From: an uncultured Candidatus Rokubacteria bacterium
Lineage (GTDB): Bacteria; Methylomirabilota; Methylomirabilia; Rokubacteriales; CSP1-6
Assembly: GCA_963762145.1 (NCBI GenBank)
Contig: CAVXJS010000019.1
Coordinates: forward strand, 1 to 64,000
Reading direction: 5' to 3'
Length of the DNA stretch: 64,000 nucleotides
Shown: positions 3,248 through 35,636 of the stretch, in pieces
Numbering within the stretch: the first letter of the stretch is position 1
How the letters are laid out: each line of letters starts with the position of its first letter
The notes under the pieces: model-generated
The model's input: only the letters and a program-made list of their open reading frames with translations
Told to the model about the DNA's origin: nothing
The model's database searches: none
Translations under genes and position numbers: made by a program

Positions 3248-3418
3248 ATGAGCAACGAACAGTTCATCCAGATCAGTGTCGCAACGATGCCGAGCCAGCC
3301 ACCGTATGCGCTGGTCTACGCCCTCGATGAGCAAGGGAATGTCTGGAAGCTGGTAGATGGCGGTGTCGGCGGCGCCGCCCAGAAATGGACCATGCTGCGT
3401 AACGAGCGCCAGAGCTAA
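3248..3418 (+). CDS. Small hypothetical protein (56 aa, not in ORF track)
   Basis: AAGGAG/AGGA upstream; MSNEQFIQISVATMPSQPPYALVYALDEQGNVWKLVDGG...RQS*. Confidence 0.6.
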   Translation: MSNEQFIQISVATMPSQPPYALVYALDEQGNVWKLVDGGVGGAAQKWTMLRNERQS

Positions 3419-30249: not shown

Positions 30250-33200
30250 TCACGCGCGACGGACGGCGACGTGAACACGCGCCGCCTCGAGGTCGACCTC
30301 TCGCACCATCCAGTCGCCGGGCGGGACCCCGCAGCGCAGCTCCACGGCGAGGGTCTCGCCACGGATGTAGGGCGAGTGCTCCTCGATCGCCTCCGCGACC
30401 TCGCCGTGAGCGTCGACCGCGACGCGGATGCGATCGTCGACATTGAGCCGGGCCTCCTTGCGCATCATCTGGATCTGGTGGACCAGATGGCGCGCCACGG
30501 CCTTCCGCCGGAGGTCCGGCGTCATCGTGGCGTCGAGCGCGACGATCACGTCCCGGTCCCCGGCGGCCGCGAAGCCCTCTCGGCCCTCCACCGTGAAGGT
30601 GAGATCCGCCCATCCGAGCCTGACCTCGACGTCCCCCACCGGAACGGTGAGGTGGCCGGCAGCGAGCAACGTGTCGCGGATGATGGATCCCGGGCGCTCC
30701 GCCAGGGCGGCGCGGAGGGCGGGCACCGCATTCGGCGGCAGCGCCGAGGTGTCGTCGATGTCGAGCTCCACTGAGATGGTGACGTGCCCGTCGAGGCTCG
30801 CCACGGTTTCGAGGCGCTCGACGTTCAGCTCATCGAGGATGTCCGGCTCGAAGGCCCGCACCGCGCGCTCCACGTCGGGGGGCGCCACCAGGAGAGCCCG
30901 GCCGAGGGGCTTCCGGACCTTGAGGCGGGCGGCGTTGCGGGCCGCCAGGCCGACCTTGAGCACCCGCCGGGCCGCCACGACGGCGGCTTCCAGGTCGGGC
31001 CGCGCACGGCCCGGATCGGGCGCCGGGAAGGGCAGGAGGTGGAGGCTGACGGGCGCCTCGGGCGACACCGCGCGCACCAGGTTCTGGTAGACGTGCTCGG
31101 TGATGAACGGCATGACCGGCGCGAGGAGCTGGCACACTCGCACCAGCACGTGGTGGAGGACCTGGAACGCGGCCTCCTTCTCGCGGTCGAGCACGCCCTT
31201 CCAGAACTCGCGGCGCCGGCGCCGCACGTACCAGTTCGACAGATCGTCGTGGACGAAGGCGTCCACGGCGGTGACCGCGCGGCGGATCTGATAGGTGTCG
31301 AAGGCCAGCCGCACCTCGGCGATGGTGGCCTGCAGCCGGCTCAGCAGCCACTGCTCGAGCGGGGCCACGTCCGGCGGGAGGCGGTCCGGGCCCGGCAGCG
31401 GCGGCCGGTCGAGGTTCGCGTAGGTGACGAAGAGGGTGTAGACGTTCCAGAACGTCAGGAACCGCCGCTTGACGTCGCGCGCCGCCTCGAGGCCGAAGCG
31501 GAGCGGCTCCGTGACGGCCTGGGACGCGAACATGTGGCGGATCACGTCGGGGCCCAGCGTCTCGAGGGTATCGTCGAGCCAGACCGCGTTGCCCCAGCTC
31601 TTGTGCATCTCGCGCCCGTCGGCGGCCAGCACCCGCTCGTGCGCCAGCACGGTCCGGTAGGGGCTCGCCCCCTCCATGGCGGTGGACATGAAGAGCAGCG
31701 CGTAGAACCACCCGCGGAGCTGGCCCACCGCCTCGACGATGAAGTCGGCCGGGAACCAGCGCTCCCACCGCTCGCGGTCCTCGAGATAGCCCAGCGTGGA
31801 GAACGGCACGATGCCCGCGTCGAGCCAGCAGTCGCCGACCTCGGGGATGCGTGGGACGGGCTGGGCGCAGGCGGGGCAGCGGATGACGATGCCGTCGAGC
31901 CACGGGCGGTGCAGCTCCGGCACCGCGTCCACTGCCTGCGGGTCCAGGGCCAGCTCCCGAAGCTCCTGCGCGCGAGCCGACCACGGTGAGGCGCCCGCAT
32001 GCGCACGGGTAGAAGGGCAGGGGCAGGCCCCAGTAGCGCTTGCGCGAGATGCACCAGTCGCCCATGTTGGCGAGCCAGTCGTCCATGCGCAGCTGCATGT
32101 GGGCCGGGAGCCAGGTGACGCGCTCGTTGGCGGCCCGGGCCAGCGGCCGGATCTCGGTGGCGCTGAGGAACCACTCGTCCGCGACGCGAAAGATCAGCTC
32201 GTGGCCACACCGCCAGCAGGTGGGATACCGATGGCGGTGCGAAGCCCGCGCGAAGAGCAGGCCACGCTCCTTCAGGAGGCCGGCGATCGGGGCGACGGCG
32301 TCGAGGACCGCGGTGCCCGAGAGGGAGCCGAAGCCTTCCAGGTAGCGGCCCTCGGGATCCACGGGCGCGACGACGGGGAGCCCGTGCCGGCGGCCGAGGT
32401 CGAAGTCCTCGAATCCGCAGCCCGGCGCGATGTGGACGAGCCCGGTGCCGTCCTCGGCCGACACCTCGTCCCAGGGGATCACGCGGTGCTCGATGCCCTG
32501 CTGGGCGGGTAGATCGTCGAACGGACCCGACGTATCGCAGCCCGACGAGCTCGGCGCCCTTGACGGTTCGTCGCGGCGCCCCGAGGGCCGGGTAGCGCCC
32601 GGCGCAGACCCGCGGCGACGTAGTAGACCGTGCCCGCCCGCTCGCATTCGACGTAGTCGAGGTCGGGGTGCACGGCCACCGCCACGTTGGCGGGCAGGGT
32701 CCACGGCGTCGTCGTCCACACGAGCAGCCGGTGGTCGGGCCGATCCCGGAGCGGGAGGGCGACGGTCACCGACTCGTGCGTGAGCTCGGCGTAGGCATCC
32801 AGCATCTCGTGCTGCGAGATCGAGGTGCCGCAGCGAGTGCACCACGGCATCGGACGGTGTCCCGCATAGAGCCAGCCCCGCTCGTGGCAGCGCTTCAGAA
32901 AGCTCCAGTTGTACTCGATGTTGGTGTCGGACATCGTGAAGTAGGAGCTGGGCCAGTCCATCCACTGGCCGAGCTTCTTCGACTGCTCGGTCTGGACCTG
33001 GGCGAAGTGCAAGACCCGCTCGCGGCAGGCGCGCGAGAAGCGCTCCAGGCCATAGGACTCGATCTCCCGCTTCGAGTTGAAGCCGAGCGTCTTCTCGACT
33101 TCGACCTCCACCCAGAGTCCCTGGCAGTCGAAGCCGTTCTGGAATCGCTGGTCGTAGCCGCAGAGCGCCCGGTAGCGCTGGACCACGTCCTTGAACGTGC

Positions 33201-33381
33201 GCCCCCACGCGTGGTGGATGCCCATCGGGTTGTTGGCGGTGATCGGGCCGTCGAGGAAGGAGAAGCGCCGCGCTCCGCGGTTCCTGGCCACGAGACGCGA
33301 GAAGACCTGCTCGCGCTCCCAGAGCTGCAGCGTGGCGGCCGCCACGGCGACGAAATCGAGCGGTCCCGGCGTGGAAAACAT
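30250..33381 (-). CDS. ileS: Isoleucyl-tRNA synthetase, type 2-like (frameshifts ~31960 and ~32520-32600)
   Basis: FLDGP..ANNPMGIHH, GFDCQGL, WTTTPWTLPAN, GTGLVHIAPG, DWCISRKRYWG, EMHKS, LSNWYVRR. Confidence 0.93.
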
Positions 33382-33433
33382 GCTCGCCTCCCCTTGTCTG
33401 GTGTAGAACGACCCGGGTCCCCGGCGAGCTGGG

Positions 33434-33467
33434 AAACAAAACGGCCGCCAGGAACCCTGACGGCCGT
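33434..33467 (-). terminator. Intrinsic terminator in the ileS 5' leader
   Basis: ACGGCCGUCAGG-GUU-CCUGGCGGCCGU followed by UUUGUUU, about 50 nt before the ileS ATG. Confidence 0.85.
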
Positions 33468-33495
33468 GAGATACGTGGACGCGATGTGCCGACCG

Positions 33496-33546
33496 TCAGC
33501 TCAGAAACTTCCCTCCGGTGATGCCTGAGCGACTAATTCGGCGCAT
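33496..33546 (-). promoter_or_regulatory. Putative attenuator leader peptide MRRISRSGITGGKFLS
   Basis: Ile codons AUU and AUC; stop codon lies within the antiterminator strand. Confidence 0.65.
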
Positions 33547-33686
33547 GGCCAGACAATAACACAGGCCGCCCATGGTGAGCAGGCTTGTGCTCAGCGCAAA
33601 GATAGCGCGGCGGCTAAGTTCGCGCGGGCTCACCGATTTATCCCGACTCGGGGGCTGGCACGATGCGTGCGGTATGCCCAGCCACC

Positions 33687-34025
33687 ATGCTCCCGAGCGA
33701 GGTGGGTGGGCGGGCGAGAGGAGGGCAGGCGGCGGAGCTGCGGCGCCATGCGCGCGAGACCGCCCGCTGGCCCATCGTCCTCGAGACGCGCGAAGGTCAC
33801 CTGCTGCCACTTCCCCTGATCAATCTGAGCCCGGGTGGCGCGAAGGTCCGCTTCACCGAACGCCTCATGGAAGGTGTGCGGGGACGGGTCTATTTTCTCC
33901 CGCCTCACTGGCATCCCCGCGTGGTCGAGGCGGTCGTCTGGCGGATCGATCAGGACGGCGTGGTGCTCCGATTCGATGATGTGAGCCCCGGGACGCCGCC
34001 GGCCGACCGGAGCCCCCGAGGATAG
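33687..34025 (+). CDS. PilZ domain protein
   Basis: RRHAR and NLSPGG c-di-GMP-binding motifs. Confidence 0.8.
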   Translation: MLPSEVGGRARGGQAAELRRHARETARWPIVLETREGHLLPLPLINLSPGGAKVRFTERLMEGVRGRVYFLPPHWHPRVVEAVVWRIDQDGVVLRFDDVSPGTPPADRSPRG

Positions 34026-34106
34026 CGCGAGAGGACGAGCATAACCGGCCGGAATAGTCTATCCTGCCCCCGCCGAGCCGGTGAGTCACTCAAAGGAGAG
34101 ATCGCC

Positions 34107-35636
34107 ATGCGCGTCGTCCTCGCCTTTCTCCTGTTCGTCCTCGTGTTCCCCTCCGCGGCGCTGGCCCAGTCGGGCGCCCAGATCACGATCAGCCAGCCCG
34201 CCGAAGCCACCACGATGGATCCGGGGCGCAGCACCCAGGTCCTCACCGTCAACTACTTCATCAACCTCTACGACACGCTGACCCGCTGGGACAACGCGCT
34301 GAAGCTCCAGCCGGGGCTCGCCACGTCGTGGAAGCAGGTCAACGACACCACCTGGGAGTTCACGCTCCGGCAGGGAGTCAAGTTCCACGACGGCACCCCG
34401 TTGACGGCCGAGGACGTCAAGGCCACGCTGGACCGCAACCTCGTCCCCGGCAAGACTGTGGTGAACCCCGGCTTCACCACGATCGAGTCCGTCTCGATCG
34501 TGAACCCGTCGACGATCCGCATCGTCACCCAGAAGCCCGATCCGCTCCTTCTCGTGCGGGTCGCCCAGATGGGGGCCCAGATCCTGCCCGCCCGGCTCAC
34601 CACGGACGACGGCGTCAAGGAGCTGGCCCGGCGGCCGGTGGGCACCGGCGCCTACCGGTTCGTCGAGTGGGTGAAGGACGAGCGGCTCGTCATGGAGGCC
34701 AACAAGGACTGGTGGGGCTGGGAGGGCAAGAAGCCCTCGATCGAGCGGGTGATCTGGAAGCCGATCCCCGACGACTTCCCCCGGCTGGTCGCGCTCGAGA
34801 AGGGCGACGTGGACATCATCACCAACGTTCCCCCCGACCGGTCCCAGGGCATTGCGGACGGCCGCAACACGCGCCTGCTGATGGTGCCGTCCACCCGGAT
34901 CGTCAACTTCGGGATGAACTCGACCCAGGCGCCGCTCAGCGACAAGCGCGTGCGCCAGGCGCTCCAGTACGCGGTGGACGTGAACGCCATCATCAAGAGC
35001 ATCTACGCGGGCCAGGGGAAGCCGATCGTCGGGAGCGTGGCGGACGTGGATTTTGGCCACAACCCCGCGGTCAAGCCCTACCCGTACGACCCGGCCAGGG
35101 CCAAGCAGCTCCTCGCCGAGGCGGGCTATGCGTCCGGCGTCGACGTCGCGCTCTACGCGGGCACCGGCACCATGGTCAACGACAAGGCGCTGCTCGAGGT
35201 GATCGCCAGCATGTGGTCCAAGGTGGGCATCCGCGGCCGGGTGGAGATGATGGAGATGGGAGCCCGCCAGCGGATGCTCAACGACCGCGCGGTCCCGCCC
35301 AACGGCATGCTGCTGGGCAATCCCCAGTCGACCCTGCTCGACGTCGACGGCTCGCTCTGGCGCATCTGGCATCCCAACGGCTTCAACGGCAAGTACTGGA
35401 CGGGGAGCCAGCCGGGCCAGCGCTTCCACGACCTCATGGAGGAAGCCCGCTACACGCTCGATCCCAAGAAGCGTAAGGCCCTCTACGCCGAGGCGATCGA
35501 GATCCGCAACGAGGAGAAGCCCTCGCTCGACCTCTTCCAGGAGATGGTCGTGTACGGCACGAGCAAGCGCGTGACCTTCAAGCCGCGCGCGGACTACCGG
35601 CTGATCGTCGCCGAGATGACGCTGGCGGGCCGCTAG
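34107..35636 (+). CDS. Peptide/nickel ABC substrate-binding protein (family 5), orphan
   Basis: LRQGVKFHDGTPLTAEDV; PVGTGAY; RVRQAL. Confidence 0.92.
   Translation: MRVVLAFLLFVLVFPSAALAQSGAQITISQPAEATTMDPGRSTQVLTVNYFINLYDTLTRWDNALKLQPGLATSWKQVNDTTWEFTLRQGVKFHDGTPLTAEDVKATLDRNLVPGKTVVNPGFTTIESVSIVNPSTIRIVTQKPDPLLLVRVAQMGAQILPARLTTDDGVKELARRPVGTGAYRFVEWVKDERLVMEANKDWWGWEGKKPSIERVIWKPIPDDFPRLVALEKGDVDIITNVPPDRSQGIADGRNTRLLMVPSTRIVNFGMNSTQAPLSDKRVRQALQYAVDVNAIIKSIYAGQGKPIVGSVADVDFGHNPAVKPYPYDPARAKQLLAEAGYASGVDVALYAGTGTMVNDKALLEVIASMWSKVGIRGRVEMMEMGARQRMLNDRAVPPNGMLLGNPQSTLLDVDGSLWRIWHPNGFNGKYWTGSQPGQRFHDLMEEARYTLDPKKRKALYAEAIEIRNEEKPSLDLFQEMVVYGTSKRVTFKPRADYRLIVAEMTLAGR

Follow-up and report, generated by a model that had tools for sequence, protein, structure and literature searches.

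A putative leader-peptide attenuator with a leaderless reading frame upstream of an auxiliary isoleucyl-tRNA synthetase gene in Candidatus Rokubacteria

The window analysed in this work, a stretch of 64,000 nucleotides (nt) from an uncultured bacterium of the lineage Candidatus Rokubacteria / Methylomirabilota, neither a Firmicute nor an Actinobacterium, carries a gene, ileS2, for a predicted isoleucyl-tRNA synthetase (IleRS) of type 2. The gene is preceded by a compact leader in which an extended -10 element, a short open reading frame (ORF) and segments able to form either a terminator or an antiterminator helix follow each other, all of them, like ileS2 itself, on the minus strand (Table 1). 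An initial annotation of this DNA had read these elements as an isoleucine attenuator that depends on the ribosome and on a leaderless ORF, and every coordinate it gave proved correct; the 12-bp terminator with its U tract that it listed was likewise present, as were the ribosome-binding site and ATG of the ileS gene behind it. Its general reading was supported by the relatives, as four features (a -10 element at 5–7 nt, the start codon, the isoleucine codon at position 4, hereafter Ile4, and a stop at the 5' border of the antiterminator segment) were kept at all 13 orthologous loci, and by the absence of any T-box at gathering score in the whole window. The leader is, in all likelihood, a ribosome-mediated (leader-peptide) transcription attenuator that acts on an auxiliary type-2 ileS2 and senses Ile-tRNA through a leaderless ORF.

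Analysis of the distribution of the leader was based on two samples. A protein search retrieved an ileS2 ortholog from 13 of 251 Methylomirabilota genomes, all in one family, and the leader was present at each of these loci. A scan of metagenome contigs with a DNA pattern, the last element of which was shorter than planned, returned 80 loci: 47 full-leader matches, 2 leaders truncated at the end of a contig and 31 chance hits, the latter being removed by requiring the full leader feature set. This gave 53 distinct leaders, 13 from the genome orthologs and about 40 from soil metagenomes. A covariance model (R1) built from 52 leaders and applied to 151 family genomes produced one full-length hit per genome in the genome of the window (G000) and nine others, always at ileS2, as well as one weak partial hit of 35 nt (E = 0.002). 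Likewise, all 30 metagenome leaders with at least 250 nt of downstream sequence preceded ileS2; six others were too short and four were dropped by the filter. The motif was absent from the nearest ileS2 homolog loci of other phyla (0 of 75, among Chloroflexota, Actinomycetota and others). Ile-rich small ORFs did occur at 18 of these 75 loci, mostly in AT-rich genomes, and none was conserved among the Chloroflexia loci inspected. Among the genomes searched, this leader sequence family was confined to Rokubacteria.

The extended -10 element that the initial annotation had noted 6 nt before an ATG devoid of a ribosome-binding site is a general trait of these leaders. A TAnnnT motif lies 5–7 nt upstream of the start codon in all 53 (6 nt in 46), with a TG extension in all but one (52/53); the hexamer occurs in 16 sequence variants across the family, its T1, A2 and T6 being kept in all. 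The start codon is ATG in 52 leaders and GTG in one, and a 4-mer resembling a Shine-Dalgarno (SD) sequence stands ahead of it in just three, leaving 50 of the 53 without. Both the -10 and the SD features were outside the metagenome search pattern. The leaders have in this respect the layout of leaderless mRNAs, namely a -10 element about 6–8 nt before the start and no SD, and their transcription would begin at or beside the A of the leader ATG. Comparison of the genomes was in agreement with such a boundary: the 600 nt upstream of the leader represent 11 unrelated contexts among the 13 genomes, so that conservation begins at the promoter and the leader and ileS2 appear to have moved as a block.

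Additional data on initiation came from the remainder of the genome, where TAnnnT motifs peak 6–10 nt ahead of candidate starts (103, 110, 73, 78 and 58 sites, against a background of about 25), which suggests that leaderless mRNAs may be common in this Rokubacterium. Over the whole of G000, about 300 sites stand above background at these distances. A second ileS gene, ileS1, on contig C9 (locus L127, 3469-3500, minus strand) shows a TG-extended TAGCTT 9 nt before its ATG, without an SD, and seems from this arrangement to be itself leaderless or nearly so; its locus contained no T-box or other Rfam family. Because of the genome-wide peak and of this ileS1 start, leaderless initiation is plausible for the leader ORF as well.

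The 16-codon ORF with isoleucine at codons 4 and 9, also recognised in the initial annotation, is typical of the family: 44 of the 53 leaders have 16 codons and eight have 14, the ORF being broken in one, and the peptide follows the consensus M-x-R-I-(S/R)-P-S-A-I. Conservation of the isoleucine codons among relatives had been named as a check, and it was borne out. Ile4 is always AUU and always preceded by CGA in the 13 orthologs, which were found by protein and not by motif; since the search pattern fixed CGA-AUU in the metagenome leaders, these 13 constitute the unbiased evidence. Isoleucine occupies codon 9 in 38 of the 53 leaders, mostly as AUA, and at least two isoleucines are found within codons 4–10 in 40. 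As a whole, the residue makes up 13.6% of the leader peptides and 4.46% of the proteins encoded by the genome. Genomic Ile codon use is strongly biased (AUC 96.5%, AUU 2.9%, AUA 0.6%) and CGA represents 3.8% of Arg codons; the sensing positions of the leader therefore carry the rarest codons available. ATT or ATA account for 96 of the 112 leader Ile codons, while both together amount to 3.5% of genomic Ile codons. The presence of only two Ile codons had been considered a weakness of the attenuator reading; this low number did prove to be typical of the family, and as an objection it is offset by the rarity of the codons used. Among tRNA genes predicted with aragorn in G000, a tRNA-Ile(UAU) that would decode the rare AUA adjoins tRNA-Ile(GAU) (320462-320628 of the tRNA contig); a 95-nt prediction labelled tRNA-Arg(UCG), a possible reader of CGA, looks doubtful.

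The position of the leader stop codon is as constrained as that of the start. In 52 of 53 leaders it is placed at the 5' border of segment 2, the antiterminator 5' half, beginning 1 nt inside the segment in 45 and 4 nt ahead of it in seven. Four independent 1-nt deletions within the ORF were each absorbed by a second conserved UGA located 5 nt upstream in another frame, and no leader uses the third frame, in which translation would continue across the terminator. Ile4 and Ile9 are 36–38 and 21–23 nt upstream of segment 2, respectively. With the footprint that a ribosome is generally known to have, this placement fits the layout of an attenuator, as a terminating ribosome would sit over segment 2 and a stalled one over segment 1 only.

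Conservation within the peptide is concentrated on its N-terminal part, M-x-R-I-(S/R)-P-S, as could be expected of an arrest peptide that senses a drug, of the kind found in erm or cat leaders, in which this nascent sequence would stall the ribosome together with a ribosome-targeting compound, independently of Ile-tRNA charging. The R-I-R found in many members would even fit the +X+ arrest motif, as given in the available part of its description (PMC12583479). This explanation is nevertheless extremely unlikely, since the controlled gene encodes an Ile-tRNA synthetase, to which Ile-tRNA sensing is the simpler link, since codons 5–8 overlap segment 1, so that their conservation is confounded with RNA pairing, and since the rare Ile codons would be left unexplained. 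Moreover, the nascent chain would be only three residues long with the ribosome at codon 4, which is too short for tunnel-based arrest.

The fixed start and stop also bear on a switch made of RNA only, in which the hairpins would be set by a ligand, by a tRNA in the manner of a T-box, or by a protein reading the unpaired CGAAUUAG, the ORF being incidental. This sequence is invariant at the nucleotide level, two synonymous sites included, which suits RNA recognition as well as codon choice; an AUU followed by a purine resembles a T-box specifier, and the openness of a frame of 14–16 codons is weak evidence of translation. Such a switch is nonetheless quite unlikely. No T-box or other Rfam family matched positions 33000-34400 at E values up to 10, and a T-box or other RNA family known to Rfam was ruled out as the regulator of ileS2 on this basis. 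The T-box covariance model does detect a T-box where one exists, as at the Bacillota ileS2 locus, the only one of 19 related ileS2 loci of other phyla to reach gathering score. If the -10 element is real, just 9 nt would precede the AUU, leaving no room for a Stem I, and the variable segment 1–2 interval and 2:3 loop offer no aptamer-like conserved core. Finally, the fixed distance from -10 to start (53/53) and the stop at segment 2 (52/53, frame-compensated cases included) would remain without explanation.

The antiterminator helix described in the initial annotation, between the segment spanning the stop codon and the terminator 5' arm (2:3), proved to be more than chance would give. This 10-bp duplex has a predicted energy of -19.8 kcal/mol; among 5000 dinucleotide shuffles of the 79 nt upstream, only 2 gave so stable a duplex. 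The 114-nt leader as a whole folds at -50.8 kcal/mol (z = -3.9), a value equalled by none of 200 shuffles. In an alignment of 52 leaders, from which all pairing counts in fixed register were taken, 99.7% of cells were paired in the terminator helix (3:4), with one A-U to G-C compensatory change, present in two sequences; the corresponding values were 97.5% for 2:3 and 84.8% for 1:2, the latter with double changes at two pairs. Three changes affect the shared segments and each is compatible with both alternative helices: A121G gives a U.G in 2:3 and a compensated G-C in 3:4, U73C a C-G in 2:3 and a compensated G-C in 1:2, and C74U wobble pairs in both. The near-invariance of segments 2 to 4 carries little weight alone, yet it is what interlocked alternative helices would predict. 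The leader in this way brings together an ORF with cognate codons, a 12-bp predicted terminator before the gene and an antiterminator that shares a strand of the terminator. Comparison establishes these sequence elements, their geometry and conservation, the exclusive association of leader and ileS2 and the mutual exclusivity of the helices.

The same data argue against a constitutive leaky terminator, or a hairpin affecting RNA stability, within a long 5' untranslated region in which the 2:3 complementarity and the ORF would have no role. As segments 2 to 4 hardly vary, covariation cannot by itself prove the alternative helix, a circumstance that favours this explanation. It remains very unlikely to us, because the 2:3 complementarity is far above chance and survives the only changes observed; a simple terminator would tolerate compensated drift, whereas three interlocked invariant segments combined with a fixed start and stop are the prediction of a switch.

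Folding of incomplete transcripts was consistent with such a switch. The nascent RNA of the window folds at -20.5 kcal/mol, and segment 2 then has 7 of its 10 nt paired; over the 53 leaders together the mean energy of this fold is -19.9 kcal/mol, with 6 to 10 of these nt paired in every one. When the first 25 nt were masked, as by a ribosome at codon 4, and the RNA was made up to segment 3, 2:3 formed, with a mean of 9.2 of 10 nt. Segment 1 can pair with segment 2 and would complete the classical 1:2 / 2:3 / 3:4 layout, with uneven support for 1:2 among leaders: this duplex lies above 95% of shuffles in 34 of the 53. We consider 1:2, as predicted from these folds, to be a frequent reinforcement and not an essential part. 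The terminator stem is followed by UUUCGUUU in most relatives, and UUUUG, GUCGUG, GUUGAG and GUGAUG occur as variants of the U tract. A pairing of the CGAA of the invariant octamer with a UUCG of the U tract, proposed by RNAalifold on nine leaders, was rejected, as the U-tract partner varies while CGAA is fixed.

From these observations we infer where transcription starts, that the ORF is translated, that transcripts terminate at the hairpin and that the system responds to Ile-tRNA; these steps could be combined as follows. The A of the leader AUG would be the first transcribed nucleotide, and a 70S ribosome would load on the leaderless 16-codon ORF. With plentiful Ile-tRNA, the ribosome would reach the UGA and cover segment 2, so that segment 3 pairs with segment 4 and the terminator with its U tract halts RNA polymerase some 50 nt ahead of ileS2. 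In a shortage of charged tRNA-Ile, which isoleucine starvation or inhibition of the housekeeping IleRS1 could bring about, the ribosome would wait at Ile4 (AUU after a slow CGA) or at Ile9, covering segment 1 and leaving segment 2 free to capture the emerging segment 3; the terminator would be blocked and ileS2 transcribed. If no ribosome loads, 1:2 and 3:4 would form and transcription would terminate.

Several observations weigh against this attenuator. True covariation is sparse, since segments 2 to 4 are almost invariant, an invariance in part imposed by the metagenome search pattern. Of the compensatory pairs that the initial annotation had proposed to look for, 3:4 shows a single one and 2:3 none, no pair of the latter having changes on both sides. 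For 1:2 plus 3:4, the share of paired cells observed was attained by 12 of 500 shuffles. Pairing of 1:2 is at chance level in about 10 of the 53 leaders, and also in the window taken by itself (56 of 500 and 543 of 5000 shuffles). Full-length folds favour the terminator even with the ribosome mask, so that the choice between the helices has to be a kinetic one, as in classical attenuation. The U tract is not continuous, and in a few members the part adjoining the stem is weak. At the level of the ORF, only one Ile codon is universal and 13 of the 53 leaders have a single Ile in codons 4–10; a frame of 14–16 codons may well stay open by chance, and the conserved UGAGCUGA ends two of the three frames. 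Finally, the regulated gene is broken in this window, its reading frame being split over three frames.

This last point, which the initial annotation had not seen, is due to three 1-nt insertions near 32605, 32525 and 31969, which shift the frame from 1 to 2, to 3 and back to 1 relative to the ortholog of genome G008, and the window thus lacks an intact enzyme gene. Frame breaks also affect ileS2 in G151 (contig C1), G185 (C3) and G172 (C2) (loci L123-L125), that is, in 4 of the 13 genomes in all. The gene is intact in six (G008, G020, G017, G004, G009 and G182) and runs off contigs in frame in the three others. A generally error-ridden assembly is unlikely, as 128 coding-like ORFs in the genome are at least 800 aa long; the ileS2 of the window is probably a recent pseudogene, a local assembly error being possible too. 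The leader was intact in all genomes with a frame-broken ileS2. An intact leader beside a broken gene fits an accessory gene under intermittent selection.

Assignment of the gene product relied on domains, profile scores and signature motifs. In the window, ileS2 matches the Pfam domains tRNA-synt_1, Anticodon_1 and DUF5915, and the intact G008 ortholog (1042 aa) scores 704.6 bits with the NCBIfam ileS equivalog model TIGR00392, above the cut-off of 621.4. On MupA and MupB models, the latter protein outscores the other IleRS of its genome. The GIHH enzyme pointed out in the initial annotation proved representative, the class I signature being GIHH in the window, GIHH or GVHH in 13 of 13 orthologs, and GXHH in 75 of 75 nearest homologs from other phyla. 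By these motifs the product would be a type-2 IleRS with a GXHH signature, a class linked to mupirocin hyper-resistance. In the available text of Brkic et al. (PMC10485003), the GXHH motif is linked to a millimolar mupirocin Ki in other IleRS2 enzymes. Compared with the GXHH IleRS2 described there, the Rokubacteria enzyme likewise has positions 1 and 3 of the class I signature swapped. It differs from those IleRS2, for which Ki was measured, in being known from sequence, and its gene is patchy (13/251) and frame-broken in 4 of 13.

The second ileS, of canonical length, encodes 952 aa, is 34% identical and was found in nearly all relatives; this ileS1 is taken to be the housekeeping gene. At the expected HXGH position, Rokubacteria ileS1 genes encode H-(M/V/L)-G-T (about 3290-3310 of locus L127 on contig C9 of G000, minus strand; also loci L012-L030). 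This form, with an extra His two residues earlier, was seen at 18 of 20 ileS1 loci from the order; HXGH stands at the two remaining ones. According to the excerpted text of Brkic et al. (PMC10485003), HXGH was present in all 158 IleRS1 sampled. Two further loci of the same order and another family (L010 and L011, in G033 and G035) carry an IleRS2-like paralog, about 40% identical to the enzyme of the window, with AIHH or GVHH; the order thus harbours at least two lineages of GXHH-type ileS.

By analogy with GXHH enzymes, the unit is probably a self-contained inducible back-up against IleRS inhibitors. A more specific proposal, which we advance tentatively and regard as rather doubtful, is that of a minimal sensitised single-codon sensor (CGA-AUU) within a mobile inhibitor-defence cassette that spans about 3.4 kb and includes a promoter of its own and a GXHH ileS2. 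At the very start of the message, the P site would hold a slow Arg codon and the A site an Ile codon read by wobble, so that one Ile codon, mostly backed by AUA at codon 9, might be enough to report tRNA-Ile charging. The unit of about 3.4 kb would move between Rokubacteria genomes, as the 11 upstream contexts in 13 genomes might indicate, and protect its hosts, when induced, against natural IleRS inhibitors. An apparently mobile unit made of a sensor and a resistant target would bear on how soil bacteria cope with such compounds.

An attenuator upstream of an auxiliary synthetase gene would have a counterpart in Streptomyces trpRS1 (the trpS case), where the controlled gene is reportedly an inhibitor-resistant paralog. 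Classical attenuation is known at pheST and reported for trpS and leuS in Streptomyces, as far as the available text of PMC1262725 goes. Within that same limit, the Rokubacteria leader resembles E. coli pheM-pheST and Streptomyces trpS and leuS in having a short ORF with cognate codons and mutually exclusive antiterminator and terminator hairpins before a synthetase gene. It differs from them in its target, ileS, in its leaderless ORF, in its occurrence in an uncultured candidate phylum, and in relying on one universal and one frequent sensing codon instead of a codon run. In the accessible portions of the respective reports, leaderless leader peptides are described for tRNA synthetase genes of Deinococcus deserti, with 14 leader peptides listed (PMC4007540), as well as for Corynebacterium glutamicum and for mycobacterial poly-Cys short ORFs (10.1101/834739). 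No leader-peptide attenuator of ileS was found in the literature searched, and ileS is possibly among the 14 of D. deserti (PMC4007540, table S9).

The ileS gene is a textbook target of T-boxes. Excerpts of the corresponding reports mention translational ileS T-boxes in Actinobacteria (PMC1262725) and, for ileS2 of Priestia megaterium, control by a T-box and CodY with about 70-fold induction by mupirocin (10.1101/2022.02.09.479832). As described in these excerpts, T-box systems follow the same logic as the one proposed here, with ileS raised by uncharged tRNA-Ile and a constitutive ileS1 accompanied by an inducible resistant ileS2; the proposed Rokubacteria sensor differs in being a translating ribosome and not a tRNA-binding RNA. 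An attenuator at this gene would mean that the same uncharged tRNA-Ile signal has been wired through a second, unrelated mechanism, by a design that requires just one or two rare sensing codons. The leader also provides a concrete example of a candidate leaderless regulatory ORF in Rokubacteria, an uncultured soil phylum whose gene regulation is nearly unexplored. The finding is comparative only and extends a known principle without revealing a new one.

Table 1. Elements of the ileS2 leader and adjacent genes in the window
Feature	Position	Strand	Remarks
Extended -10 TGTTATTGT (TG-T-TATTGT)	33561-33553	-	Hexamer TATTGT at 33558-33553
Spacer CTGGCC between -10 and ATG		-	6 nt; no Shine-Dalgarno within
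Leader ORF MRRISRSGITGGKFLS	33546-33496	-	16 codons + UGA; ATG 33546-33544, TGA 33498-33496
Codon pair CGA-AUU (Arg3-Ile4)	33540-33535	-	Ile4 ATT 33537-33535; proposed main sensing codon
Ile9 codon	33522-33520	-	AUC in window; second Ile codon
Segment 1	33533-33524	-	Within ORF, overlaps codons 5-8; predicted partner of segment 2 when ribosome-free
Segment 2, antiterminator 5' half (CTGACGGTCG; RNA CUGACGGUCG)	33499-33490	-	Includes leader stop codon
Variable stretch between segment 2 and terminator hairpin		-	22 nt
Segment 3, terminator 5' arm = antiterminator 3' half	33467-33456	-	Pairing part CGGCCGTCAG at 33466-33457
Segment 4, terminator 3' arm	33452-33441	-	
Predicted terminator hairpin ACGGCCGTCAGG / GTT / CCTGGCGGCCGT	33467-33441	-	12 bp, 9 G-C; TTTTGTTT next
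U-rich tract UUUUGUUU after terminator stem	33440-33433	-	
ileS2 Shine-Dalgarno AAGGGGAGG	33395-33387	-	Strong; 45 nt past terminator region; kept in orthologs
ileS2 coding region	33381-30250	-	ATG at 33381; type-2 IleRS, GIHH
Divergent PilZ-domain gene	33663-34025	+	Pfam E = 1.5e-07; SBP_bac_5 gene after PilZ gene

The surroundings of the leader are of some relevance to the origin of the hairpin. The nearest upstream neighbour is the divergent PilZ gene on the plus strand, and the terminator is not that of an upstream gene; about 100 nt separate the start of the PilZ gene from the leader -10. The genes found next to ileS2 encode an MFS transporter, an aldo/keto reductase, PilZ and SBP_bac_5 proteins, a cNMP-binding protein, DUF1501 and DUF1800 proteins and a DinB-family protein, and no biosynthetic cluster for an IleRS inhibitor was seen beside ileS2.

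Contigs from four public RNA runs corresponded mostly to conserved IleRS coding sequence of other organisms, and one contig, whose run may be either RNA or DNA, covers 33306-33505 of the window; neither was used as support. The spacer between the terminator and the ileS2 SD (33432-33396 of the window, minus strand) contains GGAACCCGGGTC and ACACCAGAC, both common to the orthologs, among which its length ranges from 56 to 94 nt.

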